From NCBI GenBank assembly GCA_025544715.1, contig GCA_025544715.1_4109.1: DNA of 64,000 nt; one strand, given 5' to 3'. Under the pieces are notes generated by a model. That model worked only from the letters and a program-made list of their open reading frames with translations. It ran no database searches and was not told where the DNA came from. Made by a program: the position numbers and the translations under genes. Of this stretch, positions 14,444-41,273 are shown piece after piece. This DNA is from Escherichia coli. GTDB lineage: Bacteria > Pseudomonadota > Gammaproteobacteria > Enterobacterales > Enterobacteriaceae. Position 1 is the stretch's first letter. Each line of letters opens with the position of its first letter.

Positions 14444-14459
14444 AAACGAGGATATCTTT

Positions 14460-14948: not shown

Positions 14949-14963
14949 TAAAGGAAATAGACA

Positions 14964-15359: not shown

Positions 15360-15365
15360 TTATAA

Positions 15366-15393: not shown

Positions 15394-15460
15394 GAATAAA
15401 TATTTCTATATATAATTCCCAGTACTGAACTAGTACTTTACTGATTTAAAGGAATAAATT

Positions 15461-18922: not shown

Positions 18923-18929
18923 TATAACG

Positions 18930-18955
18930 GGCGTTCTTCGGAACGCCTTTTTTAT
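18930..18955 (+). terminator. Rho-independent terminator
   Basis: GGCGTTC-ttcg-GAACGCC followed by TTTTTTAT. Confidence 0.85.
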
Positions 18956-19001
18956 ATCATAAATAAATCAAATGAATGAACGAATTATATGGAGTCCAAA
19001 A

Positions 19002-25000: not shown

Positions 25001-28000
25001 CATTGCTCGTATTATTAAAGATCCAACACAGCTAAACATTCCTTGGTTCGCTCCAATCAATGAAAACTCGTTTATTCTTAGTAATATGCAATTTAAAGTT
25101 AATGATGATACCAGTATTTTAACTGTTTCTTATTACATGGATAGTACTGAAGTTGTTAAACATGACCAGTATCAACTATGTAAAGAAGGTGACAGCTATA
25201 ACTTTAACCCACTAATTTGGGATTCAATGTGGAACTCACTAATTGGTCAAGAAACAACTGAATCAGGTTCTGTGATTAATTTATTATATCCAGATGTTGA
25301 TAACGGTTTAGGATCAAACAAAACTTGGTTCCAAAATGTTATAGAAGCTCGTAGAAACTTTGTAGAAAGTGCTAATAATTATTATAGGTCACAAAACATA
25401 ACCACTAATAGTGTTGTTATGGAAGATGTGTTTAATGTTAAAACCACTGAAGTTAACCCGAATGAAGTTTCTTTCCGTGTATTGTCTTACAATAATGAAT
25501 TAGTTATTGCAGTTGAAAGTGATAAATTTAAAGAAAATGACGCTGTTATTTTAAGTACTAGTGGATATCTACCAAATCCATTAACTTCTAGTGCTGTTTA
25601 TTTTATTCACTTCGACGAAAATGGATATATTCAGTTAATGAATAGTCCAGCAAACGCGGGTAGTGTTGTTACTATAACGTTAGAGAACAAAGGTGAGGGT
25701 CAACATAAAATGATTAAACAATCTGATTATGTTGAATCACTAGGAACTTCATTGGACATGACTCAGTACTGGTCATATGCTGATTGGTATGATGTTGGGT
25801 ATGATAGTAACACGACTTATACTCAAGAGTCAAGCTTAGAAGATGCTAATACTAAAAACTACCAAGTTGGTGATATTATCAGAGTTACCGATAGTGAAAA
25901 CATTTGGACATTGTATATTAAATCACAATCACGCGATTCAATTTATTGGAAAGCGATTGGTCGTGAAAACAGTACAGTTGAACTCAATGATATGCTTTAC
26001 GCAGATTATAGTGTTCATAATGATAATGGTTCACTAAGCAATCGTGAAATCAACGTTCGTAAAGCACTCGCTTTACTCAAAAATTCTTTCGATTTACATC
26101 AAAGCGAAATTGTTTTTGATATGGTCAAATATGTACATGTTGAACAAAGTGTTGTGGATTGGGTATTTAAAACATCATATATCTATATTGTTGGTTTGGA
26201 ACAATCATTAGTTCAAAACTATTCAAACGATAATTTGATTAATCAAATTGTTGAATATTTTGAAGAAGTTAAACCTTATAGAACTAAAATTCGTTCACAA
26301 ATAGAGCAAAAGACATCTGATGATGATTTAATAAAAGGTCTGTGTAATGATTTAGATCCTAATGGATATATTTTCGTTGACGGTTCTTGGGTCAAAACTG
26401 AAAAAGATATTTGGGATTATGAGTACGCTCAATTTAATGAAATTACCCAAAAATGGGAACAGGTAGGTTCACTACCAAGCGATTTCATTACACCAAATAG
26501 AAGATTCCAAGAAATTGATATTATTATGCATTACGATAACATTCAATGTAAACCAAATGCAGATTTGGCAAGCATAAATGAATTAGTAAGTGTTAATAAC
26601 AAATATCAATCCAATGAAAAGGATGCTGTTAGTAACTATGAATTACAACGTTATATATATTCTTTCCCAGAATATAGTGAAGAAACTTTCGATCTTCTTA
26701 TTGCTTATCAAATGCAAATCTACTATCCAGAATTGGATGTAACACTAGGAACAGCATATGGCGTTAACCAGTGGTATAAAGACCATGCGGAAGATTTAGA
26801 AGCAACTGATGAATTTACTGCTACATTGGAGCGTGTTTATAAAGAATCAACGCAGAACGATATGTTTACTGACCTTAGACAATATGTTCAGTATAACACA
26901 TTGGCAAACCGTTTGAAACTTTATAAAGATATAAGTGATGAGAAAATTCACGATGAAGTTGGTTGTGGATTTAGTGGACTTACTTATAATGACAATCCTA
27001 GTACTAGACTTCCATTAGGCTTTTCTTCTAGTAATGATTATAACTATGGATATTTTGAAATAAGCAGTGAACTGTATCAAAAATATATTTCATTAATTAA
27101 AGATAAAAATCCTGACGCATCAGACTATGAAGTAAAAGTTAAACTTGAAGTTGAGTATGGTGTATATGTTTATCGTTATGATGAAGTCGGTGGTGATACC
27201 CGTTTCTATACTGATGCTATTCACGTATTAGCAGGTATGAGAGGGTTATTCGACAAAGACGCTACTGATAAGTACGAAAAAGCTGAAGAGATTCTTAGTA
27301 AAACCCCAATTGATATCTATGCAATTACAATGATTCCAAGAAAATATGTTTACTTAAATGTTAACGGTGTATATCAAAGTATACCTGATGAACAAAGTAT
27401 TGATGATTTCATGGAAGATTATTTTATCACAAATGGTGAAATGATTGAACTAGCTGAAATAAATCTAGATGATTTACCACTAGATCAAAATAACCCAATG
27501 TATTCAGATTATCAATATATACTTGATAGTATTACTGAAGCTAAGTACTTCAATGATATGAATGCATTTGATAACCTAGCATTAGAATCTCAAACTTCTT
27601 CAATAAAATGGGAAGTTAAAGATGATGAAGTTGATCCTTATATTGTGGATATATCTGATATAAACCCTTCTGGGCGTGATGTTGGTCAAATTAGATTTAC
27701 AGTTGATGGATATGGGTTTGACAATGTATCTCTTGTACAACTACGTGATAACAGCAGATATCAAACTGAAGGTATGGCAATTATCAATCCATATAAACAT
27801 ACAGAAGCAATTGTTAGTATTCCTTCATATGCTAAGATTGAAAATGATATTAATAAAACAACATCGAAGTTTGATGAAAAATATTTCTATCGTGTGAGAT
27901 CTATTAATAGCTTAACTGAAGCAGAAATAGTTGACAATGACCTATCTGATGGTGATAAGGTGATGATTTTCACTCCTGATGGTGAAGATTTTGTGAGATA

Positions 28001-28973
28001 TCAAAATCACACATGGGAAACAATCTTGCGTGTATCTAATATCAAAAACAATACAACTCCGATCCTATTCACTGTAAGAAATACAGGTAAAGAAACGATT
28101 GAATTGATTGATGAGAGTACTGGTGCAGTTCTCCGTTATGATAATATCACTCTTGCACAACAAAATGAGCCAGTACAGCCTCTTGCATTGAACATTGTTC
28201 GTGTTAGAACATTTGCTGACCCAGAATTTGTGAAGAATGGTATCAAATTGTACGAACAAAATAGAAATTACACAATTGATGTAATTAATTATGATGTTTT
28301 CTACGATACTACTTTAAATGGTGGTAAGTACAATGACGGAATAACACCAGATGACGTTGACGTTTGGGTAATCTCTAACGAAATATTTGATGTTGATGGA
28401 ATTACTATCGACAACGGTTATAACCTACCAATTACTGGTGCGGGAGTTCTTAGTGAATTAGCAAGAACTAAAATGACTGATAGTTTAGAAATCAACGTTA
28501 TTGAATATGATTCAAGTGTTATTCAACCGTTTAGAAATAATGAAGGTATATGGGTTTATGGATATCCAATGGTTGACGGTATGTACATCGGTGTTGTTGG
28601 TGGTACGGTTACTAACATCACAACCATTAGTGAAGAAAATACAACCTATGTTTCTCAACCTAAATCAATAAGTCCTTATAGTATTAGAAATAATGTTTTA
28701 TCCGGTTCAGCCGCGAACATGAATGATATTATATCGATTGGATATGAAAAAGTTGAAGTTAGAAATGCAAATAATTTACTTCGTGGAGTAATGTATAGTG
28801 CAGAACATGATTTTAAACTTAATACTACATATTCATTCAATGGAATTAATTTAGGTAATTATGATATGTTAAAACGTTACACACAAAATAGTTACACTAT
28901 AGATCTTTCAGTATACACTGATAGTCTACAAGTTAGTGGTAATGATATTAAAAATATATTATTAGTTAAGTAA
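19002..28973 (+). CDS. Giant virion structural protein (~3,323 aa), candidate expanded baseplate/host-recognition protein
   Basis: Uninterrupted ORF; ATG 19002 has a GGAG RBS 7 nt upstream (ATG 18972 has none); bounded by strong terminators. Confidence 0.7.
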   Translation: MTNNFKFQPTQMAEAVQKKLFIKRLPEWMQGLEDIQKVSDDVIQQWFNPAENELVDGYIGDMGSPAAAGNIFLHESTVARQLYQLSTAYVSKNDDSTIRSIQFYDDLVGYMNHYGALTDNESRLFNGKFYAWTPAINPNKMNNFSSYLWDTKNSYNITSPDYIVMERGALNGNTWSLQNFWYTLGETLEDGSILTEELMQDSRFIRARAPIIEYNKNIELINYGTKFRGTVDLFSDIIKPEDIVQKDINSGIRIDGIIPQDGMRILFTSIGNNGENNRIYNVYVKKMQDGTRVYGLALDPEEETESRPSGEPQDGDVVLITKGNEYGNSSMYWNGSLWVRAQSKTSVNVFPKFQLYDRNGIKLDNSTTYPSSNFNGSQLFGFKINYNYATDSVYGYNIELGDYNYYMYENFLQSQRYTYDHLGIEVEIDGLYYYNIIDENNEMNLQTDWVRSEEYSKQYVKQTPQVQRTDMYRVFSTVYDMEVFKEPVDGMYAYVVEVDRTYQYYKADRETYLDWHPITGDGVQIVKYDHTFELAQKVLDNDSDIIEVVVDGVDVSKYTKNVSKGQVQSITLDSTVDLDEDSVIQIRTYSSTVTPNKELGAYEVPINLQNNPYNSNIIYINQGDYTLHFQDIIQKNITSGSSDDFNDYEERLAKGLVNNGVGTKIIQNEASMLPLMAHTANEDIDLFEATMFMQSEYFRFINKFNTQMLRMYDENPSDFLQNSAANIVDSILTTINMGRDSSFPFYYDNVGSTSGFIRAFIPPTPQFLGILQAYVPEKATFLTAGSKPSCYNISHTGIISKAYRVINGVDKMDDVVYELENRIFNSIDNKFKDVDYVPVLNSDDLFPTPYFTKTEYSAEEKQTLLLRGYINFTASNGISNSTHDYDPNNWRTWNYTGTYYVVNGQSTEIPARGSWRAIYTDQYGTYRPATHPWEMFGFSQRPTWWNQEYEPTAVQVGERDSDVVYVYEALVMNEQGDLVPSGLWDIDGTIGDSSTGTILSGDRRGQYDKYKRFGVQPFKITKTGNKTSSGIDICVVEYIAPEILGLVSGSLNHRAEPWAYGDMGDMEFTYMNTTLFAYDQMLLLYKAKPAQFANYFWDTRNDNLKEVFTDGSQFLYGDTRKRINFDKNTVVHGENNTRTIGYQMFVSDYLMYQNKNITTKYGDVVRSSYINVGHKIGGFTKADQLTFNAKSFGLISQENQTIGLVRSNNIRDEQMSAIKITWNGSAYQIDGYDLVGAKFKYKLPVKNGRKVTLKLENRNVVHYNEWKSEASIEYGKVFNSYQEVYTFICGYGEYLKEHGWIFEDVNDSGAQQDWNTIAKDFVIWSQNSLVTGEFISCTPSAANAKFGADFGSVQSITQNNGGVWSLLDDNNQGIRQYEIETSRIGNIFTVRTLESNKRIALIRLSLCSYEHAVIFDDKTIFGDYIYQPTYGSIQELIKMYGYITGSWTGRLQAPGFIILEAGTLPSFEKLVSDFQHYYDSETPVSDVQLQELSNHLIGYQSRDYLQRMISSDVSRVDFYKGFIHDKGTNQVLERVLRVSKSYDTDEYKALQEWAFKIGTYGNIDGKKNLQFKLINDQFKQQPQMVSFDVNATSNGNGNHIVYFGEQGKDPRWITRPNGKFSFPMRSGRSENIQLPDIGPVTLDEVSYTTKDFSTAYNDRITYTNGKGENPESVWMFKDGNGLWNIFELVDTNVQMVSITPIENTDVYAEQFCKVTLTDNVPLEDGDYYYFVDETNFMPDTLTVESQYYTAGSDPKVMVVPFDTSIDIEFTDPDTRPRLYRYVSRFVSTDERQAYIDKKYSFKAPQSTLFDRPTTYDERTNITELYLNVYDPINGVIPGAAMQNVTYTSPVDPAQYNSNGELIQAWGADKVGQVWWNTSTAFYLDYTRAIYDADGNVDIDATNEYKRYNWGRLLPHSTIDVLEWVCSPVEPYNWDKYCKDVAKKNKNNTMYLPSGTALEDNYSTFLEYDSSTDSYVTKYYFWVRDTIYVPPLHTRTKSCTDIARIIKDPTQLNIPWFAPINENSFILSNMQFKVNDDTSILTVSYYMDSTEVVKHDQYQLCKEGDSYNFNPLIWDSMWNSLIGQETTESGSVINLLYPDVDNGLGSNKTWFQNVIEARRNFVESANNYYRSQNITTNSVVMEDVFNVKTTEVNPNEVSFRVLSYNNELVIAVESDKFKENDAVILSTSGYLPNPLTSSAVYFIHFDENGYIQLMNSPANAGSVVTITLENKGEGQHKMIKQSDYVESLGTSLDMTQYWSYADWYDVGYDSNTTYTQESSLEDANTKNYQVGDIIRVTDSENIWTLYIKSQSRDSIYWKAIGRENSTVELNDMLYADYSVHNDNGSLSNREINVRKALALLKNSFDLHQSEIVFDMVKYVHVEQSVVDWVFKTSYIYIVGLEQSLVQNYSNDNLINQIVEYFEEVKPYRTKIRSQIEQKTSDDDLIKGLCNDLDPNGYIFVDGSWVKTEKDIWDYEYAQFNEITQKWEQVGSLPSDFITPNRRFQEIDIIMHYDNIQCKPNADLASINELVSVNNKYQSNEKDAVSNYELQRYIYSFPEYSEETFDLLIAYQMQIYYPELDVTLGTAYGVNQWYKDHAEDLEATDEFTATLERVYKESTQNDMFTDLRQYVQYNTLANRLKLYKDISDEKIHDEVGCGFSGLTYNDNPSTRLPLGFSSSNDYNYGYFEISSELYQKYISLIKDKNPDASDYEVKVKLEVEYGVYVYRYDEVGGDTRFYTDAIHVLAGMRGLFDKDATDKYEKAEEILSKTPIDIYAITMIPRKYVYLNVNGVYQSIPDEQSIDDFMEDYFITNGEMIELAEINLDDLPLDQNNPMYSDYQYILDSITEAKYFNDMNAFDNLALESQTSSIKWEVKDDEVDPYIVDISDINPSGRDVGQIRFTVDGYGFDNVSLVQLRDNSRYQTEGMAIINPYKHTEAIVSIPSYAKIENDINKTTSKFDEKYFYRVRSINSLTEAEIVDNDLSDGDKVMIFTPDGEDFVRYQNHTWETILRVSNIKNNTTPILFTVRNTGKETIELIDESTGAVLRYDNITLAQQNEPVQPLALNIVRVRTFADPEFVKNGIKLYEQNRNYTIDVINYDVFYDTTLNGGKYNDGITPDDVDVWVISNEIFDVDGITIDNGYNLPITGAGVLSELARTKMTDSLEINVIEYDSSVIQPFRNNEGIWVYGYPMVDGMYIGVVGGTVTNITTISEENTTYVSQPKSISPYSIRNNVLSGSAANMNDIISIGYEKVEVRNANNLLRGVMYSAEHDFKLNTTYSFNGINLGNYDMLKRYTQNSYTIDLSVYTDSLQVSGNDIKNILLVK

Positions 28974-28974: not shown

Positions 28975-29011
28975 AAAAAAGGAGAGCATATTGCTCTCCT
29001 TTTCTTTTTTT
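28975..29011. terminator. Bidirectional terminator between the giant structural gene and the ClpA-like gene
   Basis: A6 then GGAGAGC-atatt-GCTCTCC then TTTTCTTTTTTT. Confidence 0.85.
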
Positions 29012-31298
29012 ATGCCAGTGCTTTATCTACAGCTTTGGAACGTTTCGGTTTAATACCGATTTTACCATCAATAACATCAAATGTAATGTTACCACCATTC
29101 ACAAGTGAACCACACAACATTTCTTTAGCTAGTGGTACACGAATGTTTTGTTCAATGGTACGTTTCATTGGACGTGCACCCATGCCAACTTTTACCCCAT
29201 TTTTCGCAAGCCATTCACGTGCAGCTTTTGTCAATGTAACTTTAACATTGCGGTCTTTGACTTGTTCATTCAAACTGCCCATGAACTTATCAATGATGCT
29301 GTCAATAGCTTCACTGCTTAGGTCTTTAAACGTAACGATACTATCAATACGGTTAATGAACTCTGGTGGCAAGAATGCTTTAATTGCCTTGTCTTGTGCA
29401 GTATCACTACCGCTCATACCAATGCTACGCTTCGTTGAATCTGCCGCACCAAGGTTTGTAGTCATAATAACAGTTACGTTATTAAAATATACAGTTTTAC
29501 CTTGTGAACCAGTCAGGCGACCTTCATCCAAAACCTGTAGGAAGGTTAGTAGTACTTTACGATCTGCTTTTTCAATTTCATCAAGTAACAGTACTGCATT
29601 AGGGAACTGCTCAATTTTATCCAACAGTAAACCGTTACCAGAATCATGACCAACATAACCTGGAGGTGAACCAATTAGTTTAGAAACAGTATGTTCTTGA
29701 GAAAATTCTGACATATCAAAGCGAATCAGTTCCGCACCAGTTGCATCTGCTAATGCTTTGGTAATTTCTGTTTTACCAGTACCAGATGGTCCAACAAACA
29801 TAAATGCACCCTGAACACTAGATTTGTCACGCAGTCCTGCACGAGCTACCATCACGTTATCAACTAATTTTTGAATAGCTTCCTCTTGACCGTATACACG
29901 TGAGCGTAGTGCATCTGGTAGATTACGCATACGATCACTTTCAGTACATGCAACCACGTTGATATCCAAATTGGCAATGCCAGCAACAACTTCTTGAATC
30001 AAATTGGCAGTAATAAGCTTACTATTGTTGTCACGTGAACGAACTTTAGCAGCAGCAGCGTCCATTAGATCAATCGCTTTATCTGGGAAGTGCTTATTCT
30101 TCAGGAATTTATCACTGAGAGAAATTACAGCATCCATTGCATCAGTTGTGAACTCAACATTATGGAATTTTTCATAAGTTGGTTTCAAACCATTAACAAT
30201 TGCACGAGTTTCATCAATTGTCGGCTCAACTACATCAATTTTCATAAAACGACGAGTTAATGCACTATCTTTCTCGATATTTTTACGATATTCATCATAT
30301 GTTGTTGCACCAATTACACGAATCTCACCACGTGAAAGTGCTGGCTTAAGCATATTGCTCATGTCCATAGAACCATTACTTGCGGAACCAGCCCCAACCA
30401 TAATATGAATTTCATCAATGAAAACAATAGTATTTTCACGTTTCTTTAGTTCTTTTAGCAAATTGTCGATACGTTCTTCAAACTCACCACGATACTTAGT
30501 ACCAGCAGTCAATGCACCAACATTTAGTGAAAGAATTTCAACGTCTTTCAGGTGTTCAGGTACGTTGCCGTCAGCAATAGCTTGTGCAAGACCGTCGATG
30601 ATTTGTGTTTTACCTACACCAGCTTCACCAGTGAGAATAGCATTCTTTTTGGTCTTGCGAGCAAGAGTCTCAATCAATGCAGACAATTCTTTCTGGCGAC
30701 CAATCATAGGATCTAGTTTGCCTTCTTTTGCAAGAGCAGTTAGATTCGTTGTATAGTCTTCCAAACCTTTTTGTTTAGATGATTGCTGCTGTTGGGCCAC
30801 TTTTTTATCTCCAATCGGTTCGTCATTAATGCTTTGTAAGTTGATACCCTTATCAAGTGACTCAACGTGTTTTTGTAATGCACGTGCAGCTTCAGTACAG
30901 CTAACACCTTCTTCTTTTAACGCAGCTTCTAGTGCTGTGTTAGGGAAAGACAGACATTCGAATAGAACAAAATATGCATCAATCGAAAAATCATCACTTT
31001 TTAGTTGTTCAATAACTGATTTTTTAGAAAGCTCATGTACAACGCGATTCACTAGAAGTGAAGTACGATTCGCGTCTTCATCTTTAACACTTTTTGGTGC
31101 ATGTGGAACTGTTGTATTTTTAAGATAGTTCATCAGGCGGTTGTGCAGTTTGTCTGCATCAATGTTCATATCTTCAAATACGTTCTTGATGCTATCAATA
31201 GTCAGTACTGTGGCACTTACGTGGTCAATAGTCAAGAATGTATGACCTAGAGATGTTGCCAGTTCGTCGCTTTTTTTGAACAATTGAGTAAGATTCAT
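29010..31298 (-). CDS. clpA: ClpA-like two-ring AAA+ unfoldase (Clp N-domain, D1 and D2)
   Basis: 762 aa; D1 Walker A GEAGVGKT, Walker B IVFIDEIH; D2 Walker A GPSGTGKT, Walker [10 protein letters not shown]; collinear similarity to E. coli ClpA (recalled); IGM tripeptide (SIGMSGSD) at the position of the ClpA IGL ClpP-docking loop. Start taken as ATG 31298 with AGGAG RBS; ORF track GTG 31319 overlaps the RBS. Confidence 0.85.
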
Positions 31299-31338
31299 GT
31301 ATTCTCCTATGTGATTCACGTCACTCTAATTAATAAAC

Positions 31339-31366: not shown

Positions 31367-31408
31367 CAAGGTAAATAAAGATATACCCGATTTATTTTGG
31401 AGACAAAC

Positions 31409-32902
31409 ATGACATATAGAATGTGGAAAAAAGGTAGAACCAATGATTACAAGTTCATTGATTCTGCCATTGCTGAACAATACAACATTGGTGGAGTTGA
31501 CATGTGGCTTTATGCATATGTCGGTCCAAAACAAGTTGCTGACAACACTGACTTATCCTATGGAGGTGATTATACATCTTCAGGATCAGTTGTGTCAAGT
31601 ATTGGCGATTTAATTTTTGGTGACACACCAAACAGAAACTACAACCTTGAAGCTATCACACTTAGTTGTGTCTATCAAGTTCAAGAAGCAACTCCAGACT
31701 TGAAAATCCCAGGATTGTTCTTTAATTTCAACACTATGGACATCACAATCCATTATAATACAATGATGCAGCGTTTAGGTAGAAAAATCATGCCAGGGGA
31801 TGTGATAGAACTACCAAATTTACGTGATTTTGATGTATTGGGTAAAGATACAGGTCTAAACCGCTTCTATGTCGTCCAAGATGCATTTCGTACATCTGAG
31901 GGATACTCGGTTACGTGGCAACATCACATTTATAAACTTAGAGTTAAACCGCTAACCGACTCACCTGAGTACTCCGATTTACTCGGTAACAATAATTATC
32001 CTGATAATCCAGATGACCCTAATAATGGTAATGGAAATACCGATGATGGTTCGTCGGAAAACAGTAACTATGACAATGAAATGGATATCATGAACCGTAT
32101 CATCATGCAAGCTGATGATGAAGTACCCTACATTCATTTTACAAATGAACATTTGTATGATGATCGACCTGATACTGTAGATTTATCAAAATATATGCTT
32201 AATGGTTATGATTTCCCAGAAGAACCTGCCGATGGAATGTATTTTTTGAAAAAAACATACCCAGTACTCAAAGAGTTTGTTAATGATACATGGATTTCTG
32301 TGGAAGTCAAGCGTGGAACTATCTTTCCCAGAAAACCAATGGATGGTGACTTCTTCTTTAAAGAAAATGACGCAGATGTGACAGGTTATACGTTGTATCA
32401 ATATGATAAAAGTGCTAAAAAATGGTTAAATTGTGATGTAGAATATACTACCAGTGATGTTCCACCAGAAGATGTGGAAGATTTTTGTATTTTTTATAAA
32501 GAACCACACATTTATCAGTATAATGATGACAAGTGGGGGGAACCAAAGGTAACTTATGTCAATGAACCATTCACGTCCAATTGTGTATATGGTAATATTG
32601 ATTCCCAACAAGATTATCGTCCTAAAATTCCACCAGCACGAGGTACTGTCCCTGAAGGAAATATGTTCCCGACTGATGCAGTAGATGGTGACTATTTCTA
32701 TCGTACCGATTATACCCCAGTTACGTTATGGGAATTCAATGCAACTAAGAATTCATGGGTTATTTTTGATTATGGTGGAAGAAAACCGTGGGAAGGTGCA
32801 GACCTAGCACTTACACAGTTTGTAAATAGTGATAACAAAGTTCCATTACATGACGCAGTTAAACCTAATACTGTTTATCGCATACATAAGGACACAGAAT
32901 GA
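31409..32902 (+). CDS. Hypothetical protein (497 aa), probable virion/baseplate component
   Basis: ORF with GGAG RBS 6 nt upstream of ATG 31409 (ORF track begins at TTG 31397). Confidence 0.5.
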   Translation: MTYRMWKKGRTNDYKFIDSAIAEQYNIGGVDMWLYAYVGPKQVADNTDLSYGGDYTSSGSVVSSIGDLIFGDTPNRNYNLEAITLSCVYQVQEATPDLKIPGLFFNFNTMDITIHYNTMMQRLGRKIMPGDVIELPNLRDFDVLGKDTGLNRFYVVQDAFRTSEGYSVTWQHHIYKLRVKPLTDSPEYSDLLGNNNYPDNPDDPNNGNGNTDDGSSENSNYDNEMDIMNRIIMQADDEVPYIHFTNEHLYDDRPDTVDLSKYMLNGYDFPEEPADGMYFLKKTYPVLKEFVNDTWISVEVKRGTIFPRKPMDGDFFFKENDADVTGYTLYQYDKSAKKWLNCDVEYTTSDVPPEDVEDFCIFYKEPHIYQYNDDKWGEPKVTYVNEPFTSNCVYGNIDSQQDYRPKIPPARGTVPEGNMFPTDAVDGDYFYRTDYTPVTLWEFNATKNSWVIFDYGGRKPWEGADLALTQFVNSDNKVPLHDAVKPNTVYRIHKDTE

Positions 32903-34255: not shown

Positions 34256-34720
34256 ATGAATGAAGCGGTTGGTGCTATATTTTTATCAAAAAGTACTGGA
34301 CATATGATGTTAAACTTGCGTTCTGAAAGAAGTACCTATTCTAACAACTGGGCATTTGTTGGTGGAAAGCTTGAACATAACGAAACACCATTACAAGGTC
34401 TGATGAGAGAAATTAAAGAAGAGTTGGGCAACTCAATACCTAACATTATTGATATTATACCGTTTGATGTATTTTGTACAAAAAATGGTAAATTTAAATA
34501 TTATTCATTTGTTATTGTAGTTGAGAATGAATTTGTACCGACTTTAAATCATGAAAGCTCTGGTTATGCTTGGGTTAGAATTGGTTCTTGGCCTAAACCA
34601 TTACACCCTGGTGCTAAAAATACTTTACTTAACACAAACTTAATGAAAGATTTTTACTCACTATGGGAAAGTATACGTGAAGGTACACAGTTTGTCAACA
34701 GTTTACCATATAGATATTAA
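34256..34720 (+). CDS. Nudix hydrolase
   Basis: 154 aa; exact Nudix box GGKLEHNETPLQGLMREIKEELG (Gx5Ex7REUxEExGU); AGGAGG RBS. Confidence 0.8.
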   Translation: MNEAVGAIFLSKSTGHMMLNLRSERSTYSNNWAFVGGKLEHNETPLQGLMREIKEELGNSIPNIIDIIPFDVFCTKNGKFKYYSFVIVVENEFVPTLNHESSGYAWVRIGSWPKPLHPGAKNTLLNTNLMKDFYSLWESIREGTQFVNSLPYRY

Positions 34721-34723: not shown

Positions 34724-34752
34724 AAAAAGGAGCCGTGTGGCTCCTTTTTTTA
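34724..34752. terminator. Bidirectional terminator between the Nudix gene and the minus-strand cassette
   Basis: A5 then GGAGCC-gtgt-GGCTCC then T7. Confidence 0.85.
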
Positions 34753-35850
34753 TACTCCAATAATCGGAATACCTGTAATATTTAACAACACGGATGCTTG
34801 TAGTTTAACGGATTCACCAGCAGTTAGATTACTAATGCTACCATCAACTCGAAAACCTAAATTTTTATTTGAGTTTAGAGAATTGATAACCCAATTTTCA
34901 TAATCAGCTTTAGATGTTCCATTAGGATTTGGAATAGATGGATCTACACCATTAATAACAATATTTACGTCCCAGTTTGGGCGACTACTGGTAATAACAT
35001 CTTTTATGGATTCTAATTGTGTAATCCTACGTGGGTCTGGCATTTGACTTGCCCCAACCGAACCAGGAACAAAAGTTCCTTGATTATCTACATAGAATTG
35101 CCCTTTTATAAAAAAGGTTTTTGAATTATAGGGAAGAGAAACTATCTCACCAGAAGAATCATTTACTTCTCTAATCATAATTTTTAATTCATAGAAATAG
35201 TTGCTACCAAATTCAAATACACCAGTACCATTAGTTAATGTTGTCCAGTTATTTGTATCTACTTGTGAAGTACCACCTAAGTTAAAATACGCAATTGGTT
35301 TAGTACTGTTACTTTGTGTGAACTCTATATATTTTTTACCATTATCATAGTTAATATCTAATAATGATGAATACTCTTTGTTTTCTGGTCTAGATGTTTG
35401 AATTTCACGCCATTCTTTGTTTTTCATTAACACACGAAGAGAATCACCGTTACTAGTTAATACCATACGACCCATAACACTATTTTCACCATCAGGTACT
35501 GTGTTAAAAACAGTAATCATAGGTATAGACGCCCATTCAGCTTCAGTTACAATATCAGCAGGTTGTCTAGCATTATCAACTAATGATATCAATAACTCAC
35601 CAGTACTACCAGTGTTTCTATACCAAAGTTGACCATTGACGTTACCACGTGGTGCAGATGCTGAACTGAAATTTTCAACTAAATGTAAAAAGTTTTCGTT
35701 CCATGCTTGACCATAACTTACTTTGTTTCTACCAACTAAATTTAACGGAACTGGGTTACTTCCTGGCTGGTTTGGTCCTAAAATAACATTATTTGGAATG
35801 GTAGCATAAACACTACCATTACTTCTATAAATTGTATAATTAACACTCAT
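34750..35850 (-). CDS. Hypothetical protein (366 aa)
   Basis: First gene read into the 34724-34752 bidirectional terminator; part of a three-gene minus-strand cassette. Confidence 0.5.
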   Translation of the reverse strand: MSVNYTIYRSNGSVYATIPNNVILGPNQPGSNPVPLNLVGRNKVSYGQAWNENFLHLVENFSSASAPRGNVNGQLWYRNTGSTGELLISLVDNARQPADIVTEAEWASIPMITVFNTVPDGENSVMGRMVLTSNGDSLRVLMKNKEWREIQTSRPENKEYSSLLDINYDNGKKYIEFTQSNSTKPIAYFNLGGTSQVDTNNWTTLTNGTGVFEFGSNYFYELKIMIREVNDSSGEIVSLPYNSKTFFIKGQFYVDNQGTFVPGSVGASQMPDPRRITQLESIKDVITSSRPNWDVNIVINGVDPSIPNPNGTSKADYENWVINSLNSNKNLGFRVDGSISNLTAGESVKLQASVLLNITGIPIIGV

Positions 35851-35862
35851 TATATGTCCCCA

Positions 35863-36471
35863 TTATTGTAATTGTACACGAACTGTGTATTTAATTTGTA
35901 AGACACGGTTTGCACTTTTCTCAACTGGGTGAAAAATGATATGGGTTAAAGGAATACCACTATCTCCATCCGTGTACAATCCCAATTCATCAAATACATA
36001 AGTTCCATCCATGCTTGTCCCTGAGCTTACACCTTGGTCGGATGGTTCACCTAACCCTAGAGTACAAATACATACAATATCAGTATAGGACTGACCTGGT
36101 ATATGTACAGTTGTAATATTATTGTATTGTGAATCAATACCTGCCGTAATTCGTGGGTTGATTTTTTTCAAATATGTTTGTGAATACAAACCACCAAATG
36201 ATGTAACACGTGGTTTTTTATAAGTAACACGCCCAGTACTTAAAACTACTGTACCACCATTACCAAAACGCATCTCGCTAATAGAACCAATAGGAATACC
36301 AGTACTGTCTTGATTATATGCTAACGCATTAGCAATGGCAGTACTCATATTTTCAGGGTGAATAGCGTTAGATTTATCTAAAACGATTTTTTGATTTGAT
36401 GGATCAGTAACGTCAGTAATTAGGACATGACCTTTAACAAATAGTTTTGGTTGTTCTGTTTCTAATTTCAT
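35863..36471 (-). CDS. Hypothetical protein (202 aa)
   Basis: Tightly packed ORF in the minus-strand cassette. Confidence 0.5.
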   Translation of the reverse strand: MKLETEQPKLFVKGHVLITDVTDPSNQKIVLDKSNAIHPENMSTAIANALAYNQDSTGIPIGSISEMRFGNGGTVVLSTGRVTYKKPRVTSFGGLYSQTYLKKINPRITAGIDSQYNNITTVHIPGQSYTDIVCICTLGLGEPSDQGVSSGTSMDGTYVFDELGLYTDGDSGIPLTHIIFHPVEKSANRVLQIKYTVRVQLQ

Positions 36472-36480
36472 TTCTAATCC

Positions 36481-36978
36481 TTAGTAGTTAATTAAAATTT
36501 GTTCTAACTTCCCAGCTAAACTTTTTTGGACATCTGATGGATACTTACTAATATAATCACGGTCTATACCAACTTTAAGGTAAGTAAAATTACCAGTTAC
36601 TGTTTCAGCAAATGTTCCGGTAGTTCCTTGTTGTCTAATTAAATCCCCACCATTTGGATTTAAAATAACCATATCAGTAAATTCAAGATAATAATTACAA
36701 CTTTCAGTGAATTTAATTGGAAACCAATCATCATCAGTAGGATTACTAGCTAATGTAGCTAACACATAAATTCTACCAATAAAATTACGTAGTGTAAATG
36801 AAATCGTATGTAAACCTGTAGTACAGCCATAGTAGCCACCACTAGCAAGTGGTAACGTTTGTTCATTCCAGTGATAATCCAAGTTAGCTGGATACCAGCT
36901 ATCAGATTCAGGAAAATCTTGCCATGAACCATCTTTTGTTTTTCTTCTGAAGAGAAAGTCTTTTGATCTTAATGCCAT
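36481..36978 (-). CDS. Hypothetical protein (165 aa)
   Basis: First ORF of the minus-strand cassette; divergent from the fibre gene at 37089. Confidence 0.5.
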   Translation of the reverse strand: MALRSKDFLFRRKTKDGSWQDFPESDSWYPANLDYHWNEQTLPLASGGYYGCTTGLHTISFTLRNFIGRIYVLATLASNPTDDDWFPIKFTESCNYYLEFTDMVILNPNGGDLIRQQGTTGTFAETVTGNFTYLKVGIDRDYISKYPSDVQKSLAGKLEQILINY

Positions 36979-37088
36979 TGTTTAAGCCCTTTTAGTAGTG
37001 AACTTTCATTTATTTATTAATGATAACGAAATGTATTTTGTACTGATAAATATTGGTATATGACATTAACTCATACAAGGGAAATATT

Positions 37089-38204
37089 ATGACAATTTCA
37101 TTTAATGGTTCATGTAATAACTCCGGCATCAAAAGTCTAGTTATTAATGGTGCTGGGCATTTAATTGTAACCTATGCAGATAACACAATTCAAGATTTAG
37201 GTCTTGTTGTAGGACAGAATGGCGAGAATGGTAAAAACTTTTATCCTAATGAGATTGGTTTTGAAATTCCTTCCGAACAATTTAAAGTTGGTGAACCACT
37301 TGGGTGGTGCTACTTAAGCTTGGCTAACAACACCAGTACTCTATACTTTAAATCAAACGATGCACAAGATCCGACAAGTACATGGATTAGTGTTGAGTTT
37401 GGTAAAGGTGATACTGGTGAAGCGGGTAAGCCGTTCCACATTGATAGTGCTGGGACTTCTTTCCCAACAACTGGTCTTTTTAATAACTATACATTTTATA
37501 ATACTCAAGATGGTAAGCTTTATTTCTATCAAAGTGTAACTGCCACTTGGAGTGATGGTATCCCTTTCCGTGGTGAACAAGGTCCGCGTGGTCGTTTCCA
37601 TATTGATAGCAGTGGTGATCAATTTCCAAGTATTGAAAATCTTCCAGTTGATTATTGTTTTTATAACAACACTGATGGAAAACTATATTATGTTGATGAA
37701 GTAACTACAACTACCCCTCCTTCAAAAGAGTGGAGTGATGGTATTCTATTCCGTGGTAAAGAAGGTCAGCAAGGTATTCAAGGTATACAAGGCGAACCAG
37801 GTGCACCAGGTAAAGATACAATTTCTATTAGAAATACCATAGATAGCTCATGGACTAACGCACTATTAGTTATTGGTACATGTCCTGCTGGATATGTAGT
37901 TTCTAATATTGATGTAAACGTTATACAACCTTATTCTCTTCCTGTAACTGATATGTTTGTACGTTTTGGTGGTGAAGCACAAGAAGATATTGGCGGGACG
38001 GTAATTGCACCAACTTCCTACTTTGATATCAATCGTCAGATGCGTTTTATTGTTAATGAAACTAATCATGCAGCATCCGATGTTGATGAAATTATTTCAT
38101 GTGTATTCAACGATTCTGTTAACAACAGTCCTTATGGAAAAATGGAAATTATTTGTACTCTTTCATGGCAAGCTCCTATCCAACCGATTCAAGATAATAT
38201 TTAA
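37089..38204 (+). CDS. Tail fibre-like protein with short collagen-like (Gly-X-Y) stretch and internal duplications
   Basis: ATG 37089 with AAGGGA RBS (ORF track TTG 37053); GKEGQQGIQGIQGEPGAPGKD; duplicated FHIDS(A/S)G...DGKLY(F/Y)...WSDGI(P/L)FRG units. Confidence 0.55.
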   Translation: MTISFNGSCNNSGIKSLVINGAGHLIVTYADNTIQDLGLVVGQNGENGKNFYPNEIGFEIPSEQFKVGEPLGWCYLSLANNTSTLYFKSNDAQDPTSTWISVEFGKGDTGEAGKPFHIDSAGTSFPTTGLFNNYTFYNTQDGKLYFYQSVTATWSDGIPFRGEQGPRGRFHIDSSGDQFPSIENLPVDYCFYNNTDGKLYYVDEVTTTTPPSKEWSDGILFRGKEGQQGIQGIQGEPGAPGKDTISIRNTIDSSWTNALLVIGTCPAGYVVSNIDVNVIQPYSLPVTDMFVRFGGEAQEDIGGTVIAPTSYFDINRQMRFIVNETNHAASDVDEIISCVFNDSVNNSPYGKMEIICTLSWQAPIQPIQDNI

Positions 38205-38218: not shown

Positions 38219-40360
38219 ATGGCAGTATTTTCTAATTTTGAAGGAACTATGCAGCCCAAATTCATATTGGGGAAAAAAGGTGCTTCAATAAATTTTATCA
38301 ATGATTCAGTTTCTATAAAAGATTATCTAGGAGAACAGTTCCTGCCACTTAAGGTAGGAACTTCATCTGATCCTAATTCAGCAGTTAACGTAAAATATCT
38401 TGAAGATAATCCTAATGCATTATTTGGTGTTGTACCACCTACCGATGATATAGGAAAGAACAATAATACGTATTTTCAAATTGATGAAGATGGTATTGTT
38501 GATATTTTTGCAAAAAGCAATGGTACATGGGTAAAATCATTATACATTAATAAAAAAGTTCTATCCAGTAAAAATGGTGGAGATTTCATCGGACTTATTA
38601 CTGGAGGTACAGTTCAACAGGCACAGTTTTATATAACACCAGAAGAATTTGGTGCTAAAGGTGATGGTGAAACTGATGACACTGCTGCTGTAAATTTATG
38701 TGCTGCTTATGCTAAAGAAAATAAAATCCAAATTCAGGCTGGTGGTAATTACCGTATCAAAACTGCAATATATCTGGAAGATGTAACTTGGTTTGGGGGA
38801 ACTATTACTGGTAACGGTGGTACTATGGTATCCGTTATTAATTCCCAAATACAATTTGCAACACTTACTGGATGTTATTTAAAATTCTTCGGTGGCGATG
38901 GTAAGTTTTATTTTAATAAATTTATAAACATCACAAGTACTGCTGCATTTTTAATGCAAGGCATGACACAACCAGGTACAATAGATTTTTGCTTTAATGA
39001 AATGACCCAATGTAAGTATGGTGTTCTTCAACAAGGTACTGGTGAGAAAATGAAGGTTGGTAGATATTCATATAACCACATACATGATATATATGGTGAT
39101 GCAATTGAACTAAACGTAATTAACTCACACTATCCTGATGGTTTTGTTATTGAAGGGAACATAATTGAAAACGTTGATGGTTCTAACGCTCCAATCCCAC
39201 TTTCAAACTGGGGTATTGGTATTGGTGTTGCTGGTTCTGGTCCTTATGGTTTAGATGCACCAGATACACAATATGTCAGAAACTTTGTTATTAAAAATAA
39301 CAGACTATATAATGTTAGACAATGTATCCACGTTGAATTAGGCATGGACTTTAAAATACTTAATAATGAAGTTTATCCATCATCTTTAGTTTCTGTTGGT
39401 ACTGGATTAACCACTGCTGGTGTTATAACTTATGGTTCAAAGGAATTCATTATTGATGGATTGACTGGTCATTTGCTTAATGATCCTTCTATCACAAATA
39501 GAATGGTTTCAATAAACTGGGGTGTAACTTCTGGTCGTTTTGCTGGACCACCTAGAAACTTTAAAATTTCTAATCTCTATATTCCAGAGTCTTCTATACT
39601 TGTTTATACTTCCGGTTCTGACAATTGGTTAAATAATACAGAATTGAGCAATATCACCTGTTCTAAAATTCTTTGGCGTGGTTTACCATCATCATCTAAA
39701 TTTAGTGATATTAGAACTAAAGAATTAGATGTAATTGGTCAACATCTCTCTACAGAAGGCGAAGGTGGTGGTATCTATACTCGCTCTAAATATACTTATA
39801 CTAATTGGACTAACTGTGTTGTTCAAGATGATTGTAATGTTTCAAAATATAGTTTTTCTAAAATGTATGTAGACAGAATAGACCAATCATCTAATAACTT
39901 TAAAGTTACAACTGCAATCGATGGTACAGGTCACCGTGGCCCAGTACTGATACCTGTAGTTGAGCAATATTATATTCCATACGATACTTTTCCTGGGGGA
40001 CGCTATTTCTCTGAAGGTACGATTATTCATAAACAATCGGGTGGAAAATATATTGTAACTGTTGGTGGTTCTTTTTTCGGAAAATATGACACAATTAGAC
40101 AAACGGTAGCAGGACAAACATACATAGAAGCATTGGGTGTGTCATGGGGTGAAAACCAATATGCAAAAGCTGCTGGTACTGAGATTATTATATCTGGTGC
40201 TGGTGAAAATGGTGGTGATTTGAGAACGTATATAACTCGTGCAGTGTATGTTGTAAACAACGTATATAGAATTGATATTGCAGATCCTATCATAACAGCA
40301 ACTGCCGCTGGTGCAGCATTAAAAGCCGCCCAACCCGTAACTTACATAACCCTACCATAA
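38219..40360 (+). CDS. Tailspike with pectate-lyase-like right-handed beta-helix (putative polysaccharide depolymerase)
   Basis: 713 aa; conserved N-terminal anchor (MAVFSNFEGTM...) followed by FGAKGDGETDDTAAV, a hallmark of pectate-lyase-fold tailspikes. Confidence 0.7.
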   Translation: MAVFSNFEGTMQPKFILGKKGASINFINDSVSIKDYLGEQFLPLKVGTSSDPNSAVNVKYLEDNPNALFGVVPPTDDIGKNNNTYFQIDEDGIVDIFAKSNGTWVKSLYINKKVLSSKNGGDFIGLITGGTVQQAQFYITPEEFGAKGDGETDDTAAVNLCAAYAKENKIQIQAGGNYRIKTAIYLEDVTWFGGTITGNGGTMVSVINSQIQFATLTGCYLKFFGGDGKFYFNKFINITSTAAFLMQGMTQPGTIDFCFNEMTQCKYGVLQQGTGEKMKVGRYSYNHIHDIYGDAIELNVINSHYPDGFVIEGNIIENVDGSNAPIPLSNWGIGIGVAGSGPYGLDAPDTQYVRNFVIKNNRLYNVRQCIHVELGMDFKILNNEVYPSSLVSVGTGLTTAGVITYGSKEFIIDGLTGHLLNDPSITNRMVSINWGVTSGRFAGPPRNFKISNLYIPESSILVYTSGSDNWLNNTELSNITCSKILWRGLPSSSKFSDIRTKELDVIGQHLSTEGEGGGIYTRSKYTYTNWTNCVVQDDCNVSKYSFSKMYVDRIDQSSNNFKVTTAIDGTGHRGPVLIPVVEQYYIPYDTFPGGRYFSEGTIIHKQSGGKYIVTVGGSFFGKYDTIRQTVAGQTYIEALGVSWGENQYAKAAGTEIIISGAGENGGDLRTYITRAVYVVNNVYRIDIADPIITATAAGAALKAAQPVTYITLP

Positions 40361-40376: not shown

Positions 40377-41273
40377 ATGGCAGTTTTTTCTAATTTAGAA
40401 GGAACCATGAAGAAGTCCTTCATTCTTGGGAAGAATGGTGCACAGATTACCACAAATGGTAGTGTTGTGCAAATTCAAAACTACTCAGGAACACAACTTC
40501 TTCCAATTTCAGCAGGTGAACCAACTGCAAACACACACTTGGTTACATTGGGATATTTAAACGCACACAGTGGTGGTGGTAGTTCTGGTATCTTACGTGG
40601 AACAACAGCACCATCCGATTCTATTGGCCTAGATGGTGACGTTTACTTTTTGGTTGATAGTACTAATGTTCTTCAAATTTATATTAAAGATCTTGGTATT
40701 TGGAAACCATTTAAAGGTAGCTCACCTGGAACTGATAGCTCATATGTAACTACTGAAATAGTTCCTGTTTCTGCATTTACATTAGTACCAGATACTACTG
40801 ATCATTATACTTACACACTACCAGAATCAGTTCATGGTAGAGGTTCTGATATTATGATTCAACTACAAGGTGACCCAGGTAATGTTGCATTGGAATCAGT
40901 ATTCCAAACCACAGTAACAGTTAGTGGTATTGGGGATATAACAATTGATGTGATTGGTCAAATCACAGATTATGCAAGTGTTAAAGTAAACATTATAGGA
41001 GCAACCACAATGACAGTACCTTATAGTAAATTAGTAAACCAAGCAGATTGGGTTTCTAGTGCTGGTGATTTCACAATCACTATTCCAGCATCCGAACACA
41101 ATCAAACCCCAGATAATTTGTATATTTCAATTTATGCAAATAAAACACCTGGAAGTGTTGCGTCATCTCCATTCGAGTTGGTAGTGACTGATACACAAAT
41201 TAGTAGTACTGGTGATGTAATCTTCACTTCTGATATTTCTTTCAGTGGTAAGATTGTCATCTCCGGTAAGTAA
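40377..41273 (+). CDS. Tail fibre/spike protein sharing the N-terminal anchor of the preceding tailspike
   Basis: 298 aa; N-terminus MAVFSNLEGTMKKSFILGKNGAQ... is homologous to the 38219 gene, C-terminus unrelated; strong terminator downstream. Confidence 0.55.
   Translation: MAVFSNLEGTMKKSFILGKNGAQITTNGSVVQIQNYSGTQLLPISAGEPTANTHLVTLGYLNAHSGGGSSGILRGTTAPSDSIGLDGDVYFLVDSTNVLQIYIKDLGIWKPFKGSSPGTDSSYVTTEIVPVSAFTLVPDTTDHYTYTLPESVHGRGSDIMIQLQGDPGNVALESVFQTTVTVSGIGDITIDVIGQITDYASVKVNIIGATTMTVPYSKLVNQADWVSSAGDFTITIPASEHNQTPDNLYISIYANKTPGSVASSPFELVVTDTQISSTGDVIFTSDISFSGKIVISGK

Follow-up and report, generated by a model that had tools for sequence, protein, structure and literature searches.

Do three genes that run against the direction of the structural genes around them represent an acquired cassette, or are they part of the virion-building programme of the phage that carries them? 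The question is raised by three minus-strand genes, here called p366, p202 and p165 after the lengths of their products, in a 64,000-nucleotide stretch of DNA (the window) filed under an Escherichia coli assembly (GCA_025544715.1). The window belongs to an Asteriusvirus of the PBECO4/121Q-like kind, with a DNA identity of 99% to PBECO4, UB and G17, and of 97.8% to 121Q. A first-pass annotation, made from the sequence alone, had offered both possibilities, with either an accessory module that was acquired or a set of unusual accessory proteins of the virion. The evidence presented here argues for virion proteins, and the trio is probably a conserved operon for late structural proteins in a jumbo myovirus of the Rak2-like kind, with products at the baseplate periphery or in the layer where fibres are attached.

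Organization of the locus

The three ORFs are tightly packed, exactly as first described, with spacings of 12 and 9 nt (Table 1), and each gene has a separate Shine-Dalgarno sequence (GGGGA, AAGGA). They are indeed inverted within a plus-strand structural block, but this block is not the simple run of baseplate genes followed by fibre genes that had been pictured. The baseplate genes proper (gp5-like, gp25-like, gp6-like, and a gene for a giant protein of 3333 aa) lie further upstream, at 11760-28973. The immediate upstream neighbours of the trio are a minus-strand gene for a ClpA-like ATPase, and genes for a 501-aa virion protein, a tail sheath stabiliser resembling T4 gp15, and a NUDIX hydrolase. 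The trio had also been said to carry no recognisable motifs. This holds for Pfam, where no family was found for any of the three proteins at E-values up to 0.1, but not for PHROG, where all three are assigned (phrog_14394, 11259 and 13657). A tblastn search found no paralogues of the trio within the window, and an Rfam scan of the whole window returned no match, and hence no RNA element that would explain the region.

Table 1. Genes and regulatory features of the inverted locus, in window coordinates.
Feature	Position	Strand	Size	Description
Bidirectional intrinsic terminator	34724-34750	both	11 pairs	Hairpin AAAAAGGAGCC-GTGT-GGCTCCTTTTT (34724-34749); A-run 5', T-run 3'
p366	34750-35850	minus	366 aa	ORF; 121Q gp577, phAPEC6 gp250c, RaK2 ORF065, CBB_231
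p202	35863-36471	minus	202 aa	ORF; 121Q gp576, phAPEC6 gp251c, RaK2 ORF064, CBB_230, PA5oct gp357
p165	36481-36978	minus	165 aa	ORF; 121Q gp575, RaK2 ORF063, CBB_229, GAP32_223
Divergent intergenic region	36979-37088		110 bp	Ends before the 37089 ATG, the start annotated in 121Q
Late-promoter-like block	36999-37017	minus		ATAAATAAATGAAAGTTCA; 5' end 39 nt upstream of the p165 ATG
Collagen-containing tail protein gene	37089-38204	plus	371 aa	Diverges from the trio

Terminator and proposed promoter flanking the trio

The trio had been described as bounded by a bidirectional terminator on one side and a divergent intergenic region on the other, and both boundaries were recovered. The hairpin downstream of p366 is an intrinsic terminator, with a GC-rich stem, A-run and T-run flanks, and a position between convergent genes; it is common to the trio on the minus strand and to the gp15-like/NUDIX operon on the plus strand. 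The stop codon of p366 overlaps the last base of the terminator, and the same hairpin is annotated as a terminator in phage G17 (ARNOLD, -12.4).

At the other end, the intergenic region contains both ribosome-binding sites and two back-to-back ATAAATA motifs, one at 37011-37017 on the minus strand for the trio, and one at 37046-37052 on the plus strand for the collagen-containing tail gene. The minus-strand motif is part of a longer block, (T/A)ATAAATAAgT.AAAGTTCA, that an alignment of three genera shows to be kept in RaK2 and CBB; in the case of CBB, the sequence upstream of the trio is an exact match to the T4 late consensus, TATAAATA. The conserved ATAAATA core and its distance from the start codon are thus features shared with T4 late promoters, whereas the extended portion found in Rak2-like phages, AAgT.AAAGTTCA, lies outside the T4 consensus. 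Across the window, ATAAATA is three-fold depleted (13 sites observed versus 36 expected), with 11 of the 13 sites preceding a gene start by 13-65 nt, on the coding strand. A sigma-70 promoter scan revealed no excess over shuffled sequence (25 versus 20.3). Motif, distance, conservation and depletion elsewhere suggest that the block is a promoter of the T4-late type. Transcription of the trio would then start at its own late promoter in the divergent region, and end at the hairpin that it has in common with the convergent operon.

Conservation and gene order in related phages

In Asteriusvirus, Alcyoneusvirus RaK2 and Mimasvirus CBB alike, the three genes are contiguous and lie inverted at the same location, with synteny and orientation kept in 121Q, G17, phAPEC6, RaK2 and CBB. 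A check of presence or absence in related phages, which the first-pass annotation had called for, found the trio in all 36 genomes matched by megablast, and in every Rak2-like genus matched by tblastn, the three tblastn matches being contiguous in all Rak2-like genomes listed. The trio is a core, syntenic operon across the Rak2-like genera examined.

Of the three genes, p202 is conserved most widely, as far as jumbo phages of Vibrio, Pseudomonas and Agrobacterium. In three outgroups (Vibrio phage 2.275.O, PA5oct and Atu_ph07), a gene for a giant baseplate protein is followed by p202 on the same strand, with a fibre-like gene next or one further along. For instance, the order in Vibrio phage 2.275.O is 424 (giant), 423 (p202) and 422 (the p366 orthologue). 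In PA5oct it is gp355, gp357 (p202), gp358 (gp10-like) and gp359 (fibre-like, with the N-terminal module of p366), and in Atu_ph07 it is gp180, 177 and 176. One or two small genes lie between the giant gene and p202 in PA5oct and Atu_ph07, and among the outgroups a gp6-like wedge gene before the giant gene is seen only in the Vibrio phage. The product of the gene upstream of the p202 homologue in Atu_ph07, gp178, was considered as a counterpart of p165 and found on comparison to be unrelated.

The outgroup order of wedge, giant, p202 and fibre-like genes resembles that of T4 genes 6-7-8-9, and also that of phage 812 (wedge, arm scaffold, arm segment, and tripod/RBPs). By gene order only, the giant 3333-aa protein may accordingly be viewed as gp7-like, or as an arm scaffold. 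Direct adjacency of the giant gene and p202 is absent from the window and from other Rak2-like phages, where the ClpA, 501-aa, gp15-like and NUDIX genes intervene and the orientation is inverted. Because the outgroups have p202 after the giant gene, with a fibre-like gene following and all on one strand, the trio most likely represents the displaced 3' end of a baseplate operon, that is, an old rearrangement without gene gain.

Presence of the homologues in virions of relatives

MS/MS of particles purified from related phages has detected homologues of all three proteins, in agreement with the virion-protein option of the first-pass annotation. Those of p366 were found in phAPEC6 (gp250c), CBB (CBB_231), GAP32 and RaK2; those of p202 in phAPEC6 (gp251c), CBB (CBB_230), GAP32 and PA5oct (gp357); and those of p165 in GAP32 and RaK2. 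In PA5oct, gp357-360 are all present in the virion. The literature on these homologues has thereby shown that, in relatives, each of the three products belongs to the virion; what is added here is a sharper proposed role for each, as argued below.

p202, a candidate baseplate adaptor

Neither profile nor single-sequence searches of p202 against all PDB chains gave a significant match, and hhalign with a 54-sequence p202 profile returned probabilities of 0.3% for T4 gp8 and 0.06% for phage 812 gp118. The fold matches of p202 include the HFTV1 hub, the phage 812 arm segment, T4-type gp8, a fibre-tail adaptor, and gp7. The closest systems are T4 gp8, phage 812 gp118 and gp105 of Listeria phage A511, small peripheral baseplate proteins that bind a gp7-like arm scaffold, although p202 differs from T4 gp8 and phage 812 gp118 in having no detectable sequence or profile homology to them. 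The arm-segment protein of phage 812 has been described as gp8-like, and its dimers as attached along the length of the arm scaffold through beta-sheet augmentation (PMC13433997). By analogy, p202 may be a small baseplate adaptor of the gp8 or arm-segment kind, which would bind the giant 3333-aa arm or scaffold protein, dock fibres to it, or both. In two MS studies, p202 homologues were represented by only 2 peptides, which does not fit a high-copy arm-segment role on the 3333-aa scaffold.

p366, a modular protein and candidate fibre or connector

Residues ~3-80 of p366 align with PA5oct gp359 (478 aa) and Atu_ph07 gp176 (607 aa), with no alignment beyond this point. The same N-terminal module also heads proteins of 500-617 aa, three of them with a Peptidase_S74 domain and one with Peptidase_G2. 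Thus, p366 is modular, with a conserved N-terminal anchor and an exchangeable distal part. A conserved N-terminal module joined to a lineage-specific C-terminal part is a likeness to T4 gp9 and to trimeric fibres and tailspikes, such as Klebsiella phage Kp9 gp42 and the tailspikes of Acinetobacter phages. Re-use of the module on longer proteins that carry intramolecular-chaperone domains (Peptidase_S74 or G2) is likewise shared with fibres and spikes, and the p366 orthologue of the Vibrio phage is encoded in the gp9 position, after p202.

The sequence of p366 shows no similarity to T4 gp9, gp10, gp11 or gp12, the hhalign probability of the p366 profile against gp9 to gp12 being at most 0.5%. 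Searches against PDB chains (single-sequence and profile) gave no significant match, and prediction indicates no shaft of beta-helix, collagen or coiled-coil type. The best fold matches are to a tail fibre, a tailspike and gp9, all weak and partial, and the N-terminus of the monomer model is of low confidence. We propose that p366, which is abundant in the virions of relatives, is a short fibre or connector-like peripheral baseplate protein, probably a trimer. Its N-terminal ~80 residues would serve as the plug, leaving a C-terminal part with a beta-sandwich fold exposed.

p165 and a domain that heads collagen-like tail fibres

The match of p165 to phrog_13657 extends over the whole protein (E 9e-96, positions 1-165 of 165), and a search with a profile of the p165 domain yielded 603 clusters (50% identity, representative library). 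Among the best 150 of these 603 clusters, the domain forms a stand-alone protein of 111-175 aa in ~100, and 42 carry it N-terminally in longer proteins, of 203-1649 aa. Pfam Collagen repeats were found downstream of the domain in 10 of 10 fused proteins tested, and directly after it in 8 of them, and six of the seven fused proteins scanned against PHROGs match tail-fibre families. The fused proteins reciprocally match phrog_13657 at 1e-25 to 1e-30. In other words, the N-terminal ~135 residues of collagen-like tail fibres (PHROG 5073, 819, 366 and 6320; Pfam Collagen) correspond to the p165 domain.

Judged from these alignments, p165 is a free-standing copy of a ~135-aa domain with which, in many uncultivated phages, collagen-like tail fibres begin, and is not itself a fibre. 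It differs from the fused proteins in that no collagen stretch or fibre shaft follows the domain, where the chain ends. Comparison of the 371-aa neighbour with the C-terminal regions of the fused proteins gave no significant similarity. That p165 and the divergent 371-aa protein are the two halves of a split fused fibre is retained as no more than a weak idea, as similarity is not significant beyond short motifs. In PA5oct (gp185 then gp184), as well as in one metagenomic contig, the gene for a stand-alone relative of p165 immediately precedes a very large tail- or fibre-like gene. Single-sequence and profile searches of p165 against the PDB gave chance-level matches only, and neither a Pfam family nor a solved structure was found for the phrog_13657 domain. 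We propose p165 as a fibre-base or adaptor protein, which would serve one neighbouring fibre protein.

A more tentative possibility, and one that we consider doubtful as it stands, is that the phrog_13657 domain defines a large family of fibre-base modules, either fused to collagen or free beside giant fibre genes. Free p165, together with p202 and p366, would then constitute a split modular docking system for several kinds of fibre on arms built on the 3333-aa scaffold. If this were true, the baseplate periphery would be much larger than any solved so far.

Alternative placements and origins

Comparison of the trio profiles with 15 T4 baseplate, neck and tail-completion proteins (gp2, 3, 4, 53, 6-15 and wac) by hhalign gave probabilities that were all <4%, and sequence searches of the PDB with the trio gave only chance matches, such as an E2 enzyme and IHF. 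Placement within the virion is argued from gene order and fold, and two other positions have to be weighed. In the window, as in every Rak2-like relative, the trio adjoins and converges with the 501-aa/gp15-like/NUDIX operon, as would suit a neck, collar or tail-surface decoration module that works with the gp15-like terminator or anchors the tail whiskers or decoration of phAPEC6 and CBB. Cryo-EM of phAPEC6 is reported to show decoration proteins at the collar and distal tail, the hairs have no assigned genes, and the collagen-like fibres headed by the p165 domain are possible whiskers. However, the hairs are ~119 nm long, far beyond the reach of a 366-aa protein, and RaK2 and GAP32, in which no hairs have been described, keep the trio equally well. 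The outgroup position of p202, between the giant baseplate gene and a fibre-like gene and away from neck genes, and its best fold matches, to baseplate or fibre-adaptor proteins, also make a decoration module unlikely. The cryo-EM structure of phiKp24 was considered as a guide and is uninformative, the phage being unrelated to Rak2-like phages. For p202 alone, the HFTV1 match could be taken to indicate a central, hub-associated baseplate component rather than a peripheral one. That match is to a 953-aa multidomain protein, any domain of which may be the aligned one. The next matches are all peripheral, and in every genome examined the p202 gene comes after the giant gene and never beside the gp5-like or gp25-like hub genes; a hub position is likewise unlikely.

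The remaining alternative, a horizontally acquired moron, host-takeover or defence-related cassette lying antisense in the structural block, corresponds to the accessory module of the first-pass annotation. An orientation opposite to both neighbours, a promoter region and terminator of its own, and the lack of any Pfam match are what such a cassette might display. Against this, all Rak2-like genomes searched have the trio at this site, with protein identities of 57-100%, and the convergence with gp15/NUDIX is found even in the distant Vibrio phage. Its composition is typical, with GC of 0.327-0.353 and GC3 of 0.181-0.197 compared with window means of 0.348 and 0.205, all within 1 sd of other window genes. 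The late-type promoter motif is one that other structural genes also have, and MS places all three products in the virions of relatives. With the wide conservation of p202 and its outgroup position added, an acquired origin is very improbable. Structural homologues at the same position in relatives, which the first-pass annotation had named as evidence against its reading, are essentially what is seen, although their description as standard baseplate or fibre components would draw on fold and synteny.

The reading of the trio as a late operon for the baseplate periphery and fibre-attachment layer does not overturn current understanding. It does allow three genes listed as 'hypothetical protein' in most GenBank records to be annotated as conserved virion proteins, probably of the baseplate periphery or fibre attachment, in a group of therapeutically relevant jumbo phages that includes PBECO4, 121Q, RaK2, K64-1 and their relatives. 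It also flags an unnamed domain family at the head of collagen-like tail fibres, and supplies three proteins that might account for unassigned density in baseplate maps still to be made.

Layout and conservation of the operon

When 4.3 kb around the trio, the three minus-strand genes whose products are called p366, p202 and p165 after their lengths, was used in a nucleotide search, 36 phage genomes matched full-length. Escherichia phages UB, PBECO4 and G17 share 99% identity with this query, and 121Q, an Asteriusvirus of the Rak2-like jumbo myoviruses, 97.8%. The three ORFs lie exactly where the first-pass annotation placed them, and are as tightly packed as it described, with gaps of 12 and 9 nt. 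A separate Shine-Dalgarno sequence precedes each of the downstream genes, which together with the short gaps gives the trio the look of an operon. The boundaries it named, a divergent intergenic region and a bidirectional terminator, are also present. The latter is an 11-bp hairpin, AAAAAGGAGCC-GTGT-GGCTCCTTTTT, that separates the p366 stop codon from the convergent NUDIX gene; flanked by A's to one side and T's to the other, it is predicted to terminate transcription both ways, and it is annotated as a terminator in phage G17. Placing the trio between the baseplate and fibre operons is broadly correct, but its closest upstream neighbours encode a minus-strand ClpA-like ATPase, a 501-aa virion protein, a T4 gp15-like sheath stabiliser and a NUDIX hydrolase. 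Similarly, the reported lack of recognisable motifs holds for Pfam, where p366, p202 and p165 have no match, but not for PHROGs, where each falls in a family, two of them related to 'virion structural protein' families.

Features of the trio and its surroundings (window coordinates)
Feature	Position	Strand	Description
Baseplate genes	11760-28973		gp5-like spike-lysozyme, gp25-like, gp6-like, 3333-aa giant protein
ClpA/ClpB-like gene	29010-31319	-	AAA+ ATPase
501-aa protein gene	31397-32902	+	virion protein
NUDIX/MutT gene	34256-34720	+	hydrolase
Trio	34750-36978	-	three genes
p366	34750-35850	-	366 aa; 121Q 577, phAPEC6 gp250c, RaK2 ORF065, CBB_231
p202	35863-36471	-	202 aa; 121Q 576, phAPEC6 gp251c, RaK2 ORF064, CBB_230
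p165	36481-36978	-	165 aa; 121Q 575, RaK2 ORF063, CBB_229
gp252c counterpart	36759-36932		57-aa, out-of-frame, internal to p165
Divergent region	36979-37088		110 bp
ATAAATA core, block 1	37011-37017	-	39 nt before p165 ATG
Tail protein gene	37089-38204	+	371 aa; fibre and spike genes begin at 37089
Tailspike gene	38219-40360	+	713-aa beta-helix, 'colanic acid-degrading'
298-aa protein gene	40377-41273	+	virion protein
Long tail-fibre gene	starts 41411
N run	45863-45958		96 N, masked or unresolved
ATAAATA copies, examples	1862, 3748, 14420, 14437, 15396, 18959, 37011(-), 37046, 49953, 61562(-), 62087(-)

With each trio protein, tblastn matched 87 to 92 phage genomes, and in every Rak2-like genome among the matches listed the genes are contiguous and in unchanged order, at 57-100% identity. 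The hosts of these phages are Escherichia, Salmonella, Klebsiella, Cronobacter, Pectobacterium, Erwinia, Yersinia, Serratia and Xanthomonas. RaK2 and CBB have the same flanking genes, with the trio inverted against them as in the window. Base composition (GC 0.327-0.353, GC3 0.181-0.197) is within one standard deviation of the 42 window genes (GC 0.348 +/- 0.029, GC3 0.205 +/- 0.043).

That the trio encodes virion proteins, one of two readings previously offered, agrees with published particle proteomics of relatives, where homologues of all three have been detected. For p366 these are phAPEC6 gp250c (9 peptides, 40% coverage; PMC7247149), CBB_231 (12 peptides, 53%; PMC5259590), GAP32_225 and RaK2 ORF065 (supplementary table S5, PMC5259590); for p202, phAPEC6 gp251c, CBB_230, GAP32_224 and, from the PA5oct annotation, PA5oct gp357; and for p165, GAP32_223 and RaK2 ORF063 (supplementary table S5, PMC5259590). 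In the case of phAPEC6 (MK817115), the annotation lacks the intact 165-aa ORF (8482-8979, corresponding to p165) and has the internal gp252c instead, so that a p165 homologue could not be found in the virion MS search. The other reading, an acquired accessory module, is contradicted on every feature tested, since the trio occupies the same site in Rak2-like relatives, is of typical composition, and specifies virion proteins. The trio is almost certainly a conserved virion structural operon, and that its genes are conserved virion genes of Rak2-like phages is already known.

Gene order in distant relatives

The most widely conserved of the three is p202, with 352 homologues, including those of Vibrio phage 2.275.O (48% identity), Agrobacterium phage Atu_ph07 (39%) and Pseudomonas phage PA5oct (35%; gp357, E 6e-40 against the p202 profile). 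In all three of these outgroups the p202 gene is downstream of, and on the same strand as, a gene for a giant protein; the window's 3333-aa baseplate protein is 37% identical to the Vibrio giant over 1797 residues, and matches PA5oct gp355 at E 6e-78. The Vibrio order is lysozyme, two further genes including that of a 1287-aa protein, giant 424, 423 (p202) and 422, a full-length p366 orthologue (E 1e-76), with the operon end convergent with gp15-like and NUDIX genes as in the window. PA5oct has giant gp355, a small ORF, gp357 (p202), gp358 (annotated T4 gp10-like), gp359 and gp360, and Atu_ph07 has giant gp180, gp179, gp178, gp177 (p202) and gp176; similarity of gp359 and gp176 to p366 is confined to the first ~75 residues.

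The Vibrio phage and the window are colinear over ClpA(-), X(+), gp15-like(+), NUDIX(+), p366(-) and p202(-), and differ in that the giant-protein operon flanks this block on opposite sides. The simplest reading of these gene orders takes 'giant, p202, fibre-like' as the ancestral state. Within the Rak2-like lineage, a rearrangement may then have cut the baseplate operon between the giant gene and p202, in which case the trio would be the old 3' end of that operon, with its own promoter and with p165 as a new first gene. This suggests a new evolutionary explanation for the orientation of the trio.

Probable location and structural class of the proteins

Fold hits to p202 are the HFTV1 baseplate hub (10.2), 9euf_b (6.9), 9f4a_A4 (6.4), phiKZ gp139 (6.0) and the fibre-tail adaptor of phage GP4 (5.9). 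When checked, 9euf_b proved to be the arm segment protein gp118 of phage 812, a homologue of A511 gp105, and 9f4a_A4 a close homologue of T4 gp8. The gp118 protein is described as gp8-like; as dimers it lines gp117, the arm scaffold protein that extends on from the wedge (PMC13433997). The gene order in phage 812 is wedge gp116, scaffold gp117, segment gp118, tripod and then RBPs, and that in T4 is 6-7-8-9-10-11-12; fold hits and gene order agree in giving p202 the position of gp8 or the arm segment.

The p366 model (pLDDT 81) is of low confidence over residues 1-60, and beta-rich and well predicted in its middle and C-terminal parts. More informative is its architecture: the first ~80 residues (NLxGRxxVxYGxAxNENFLxLxENFA...GQLWY) also head longer proteins, some with a Peptidase_S74 or G2 domain, the intramolecular chaperones of fibres and spikes. 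A conserved proximal module with exchangeable distal parts is likewise the architecture of fibre and spike proteins.

For p165, a profile search of 1.84 billion representative proteins gave 603 clusters. Among the best 150, about 100 are free-standing (111-175 aa), 42 have the domain at the very N-terminus of 203-1649-aa proteins, and four have it at the C-terminus. Pfam Collagen repeats lie downstream of the domain in all ten long proteins scanned (adjoining it in eight), and of seven long proteins compared with PHROGs six match tail-fibre families; in the Vibrio phage, the domain is the N-terminus of a 306-aa protein whose gene adjoins a beta-helix gene. Genes of free-standing relatives directly precede very large tail or fibre genes. 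For instance, PA5oct gp185 precedes the 2236-aa tail protein gp184, both MS-positive, and on a metagenomic contig the gene that follows specifies a 1387-aa protein rich in GGTGxTT and SWNGxxYxW fibre-type repeats. The fused collagen fibres and the free relatives before giant fibre genes suggest that p165 is a stand-alone fibre-base domain, and by these sequence comparisons it belongs to a large, unnamed family, which is a new observation.

The trio is likely to act at the baseplate periphery or in fibre attachment. Here, p202 would bind the giant arm/scaffold protein, or dock a fibre to it, like gp8 and arm-segment proteins; p366, probably a trimer, would plug into the baseplate periphery by its conserved N-terminal module, leaving its beta-sandwich part exposed; and p165 would serve one neighbouring fibre protein as a free fibre-base domain. 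Each individual role has roughly even chances of being right. The main alternative is a role in the neck, collar or tail decoration, to which the adjoining gp15-like gene lends some weight, as do the 'hairs' and collar decorations, unassigned, of phAPEC6 and CBB (PMC7247149, PMC5259590), but the outgroup synteny and the fold matches speak against it. A probable location and structural class for each protein is what is new in the peripheral reading; it is of use for annotation and for reading future baseplate maps, and will not surprise a specialist.

A likely late promoter

Alignment of the divergent region across the window, RaK2 and CBB reveals two conserved blocks. Block 1, on the trio strand, reads (T/A)ATAAATAAgT.AAAGTTCA, and in CBB has the exact T4 late-promoter consensus, TATAAATA; block 2, ATAAATATT, is on the other strand and precedes the tail-protein ATG by 43 nt. 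The heptamer ATAAATA, which is the T4 late-promoter core, occurs only 13 times on both window strands, against 36 +/- 6 in shuffles, a three-fold under-representation, and 11 of the 13 copies precede a gene start by 13-65 nt on the coding strand, with the gp25-like and gp6-like baseplate genes among these genes. Avoidance elsewhere and concentration before structural genes is the predicted signature of a functional late-type promoter, and judged from sequence ATAAATA is likely to be the late promoter motif of the Rak2-like group. Late in infection, this promoter would drive the trio, with termination at the shared hairpin.

Neighbouring genes

The ClpA/ClpB-like gene sits among tail and baseplate genes, and is also found next to a p165-family gene and large fibre genes as PA5oct gp186, Vibrio 2.275.O gene 418 and at metagenomic locus L010 (1256-3550), sometimes accompanied in distant relatives by DnaJ, which might point to a chaperone function during assembly of fibres or baseplate. 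The NUDIX/MutT gene closes the gp15-like tail-completion operon, a position kept in RaK2, CBB and even the Vibrio phage; its product is not one of the CBB virion proteins given as detected by MS in the entries consulted (MS table and supplementary table S5, PMC5259590).

The true start of the 371-aa tail protein is the ATG at 37089, with an AAGGGA ribosome-binding site, as annotated in 121Q, whereas the ORF-finder start, a TTG at 37053, gives 383 aa. This protein has a short collagen stretch, GKEGQQGIQGIQGEPGAPGKD, and its short repeats, like those of metagenomic collagen-like fibres, resemble a P.DGD.F[FY]......W-type motif of which several copies can be read in the translated 501-aa protein. 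The 713-aa tailspike and the 298-aa protein have their first ~110 residues in common (MAVFSN[FL]EGTM..., E 9e-20), and in sequence look like a common N-terminal docking module with two different distal parts. The N run lies within the long tail-fibre gene, so the ORF finder's 1517-aa fibre product is artificial at its C-terminal end.
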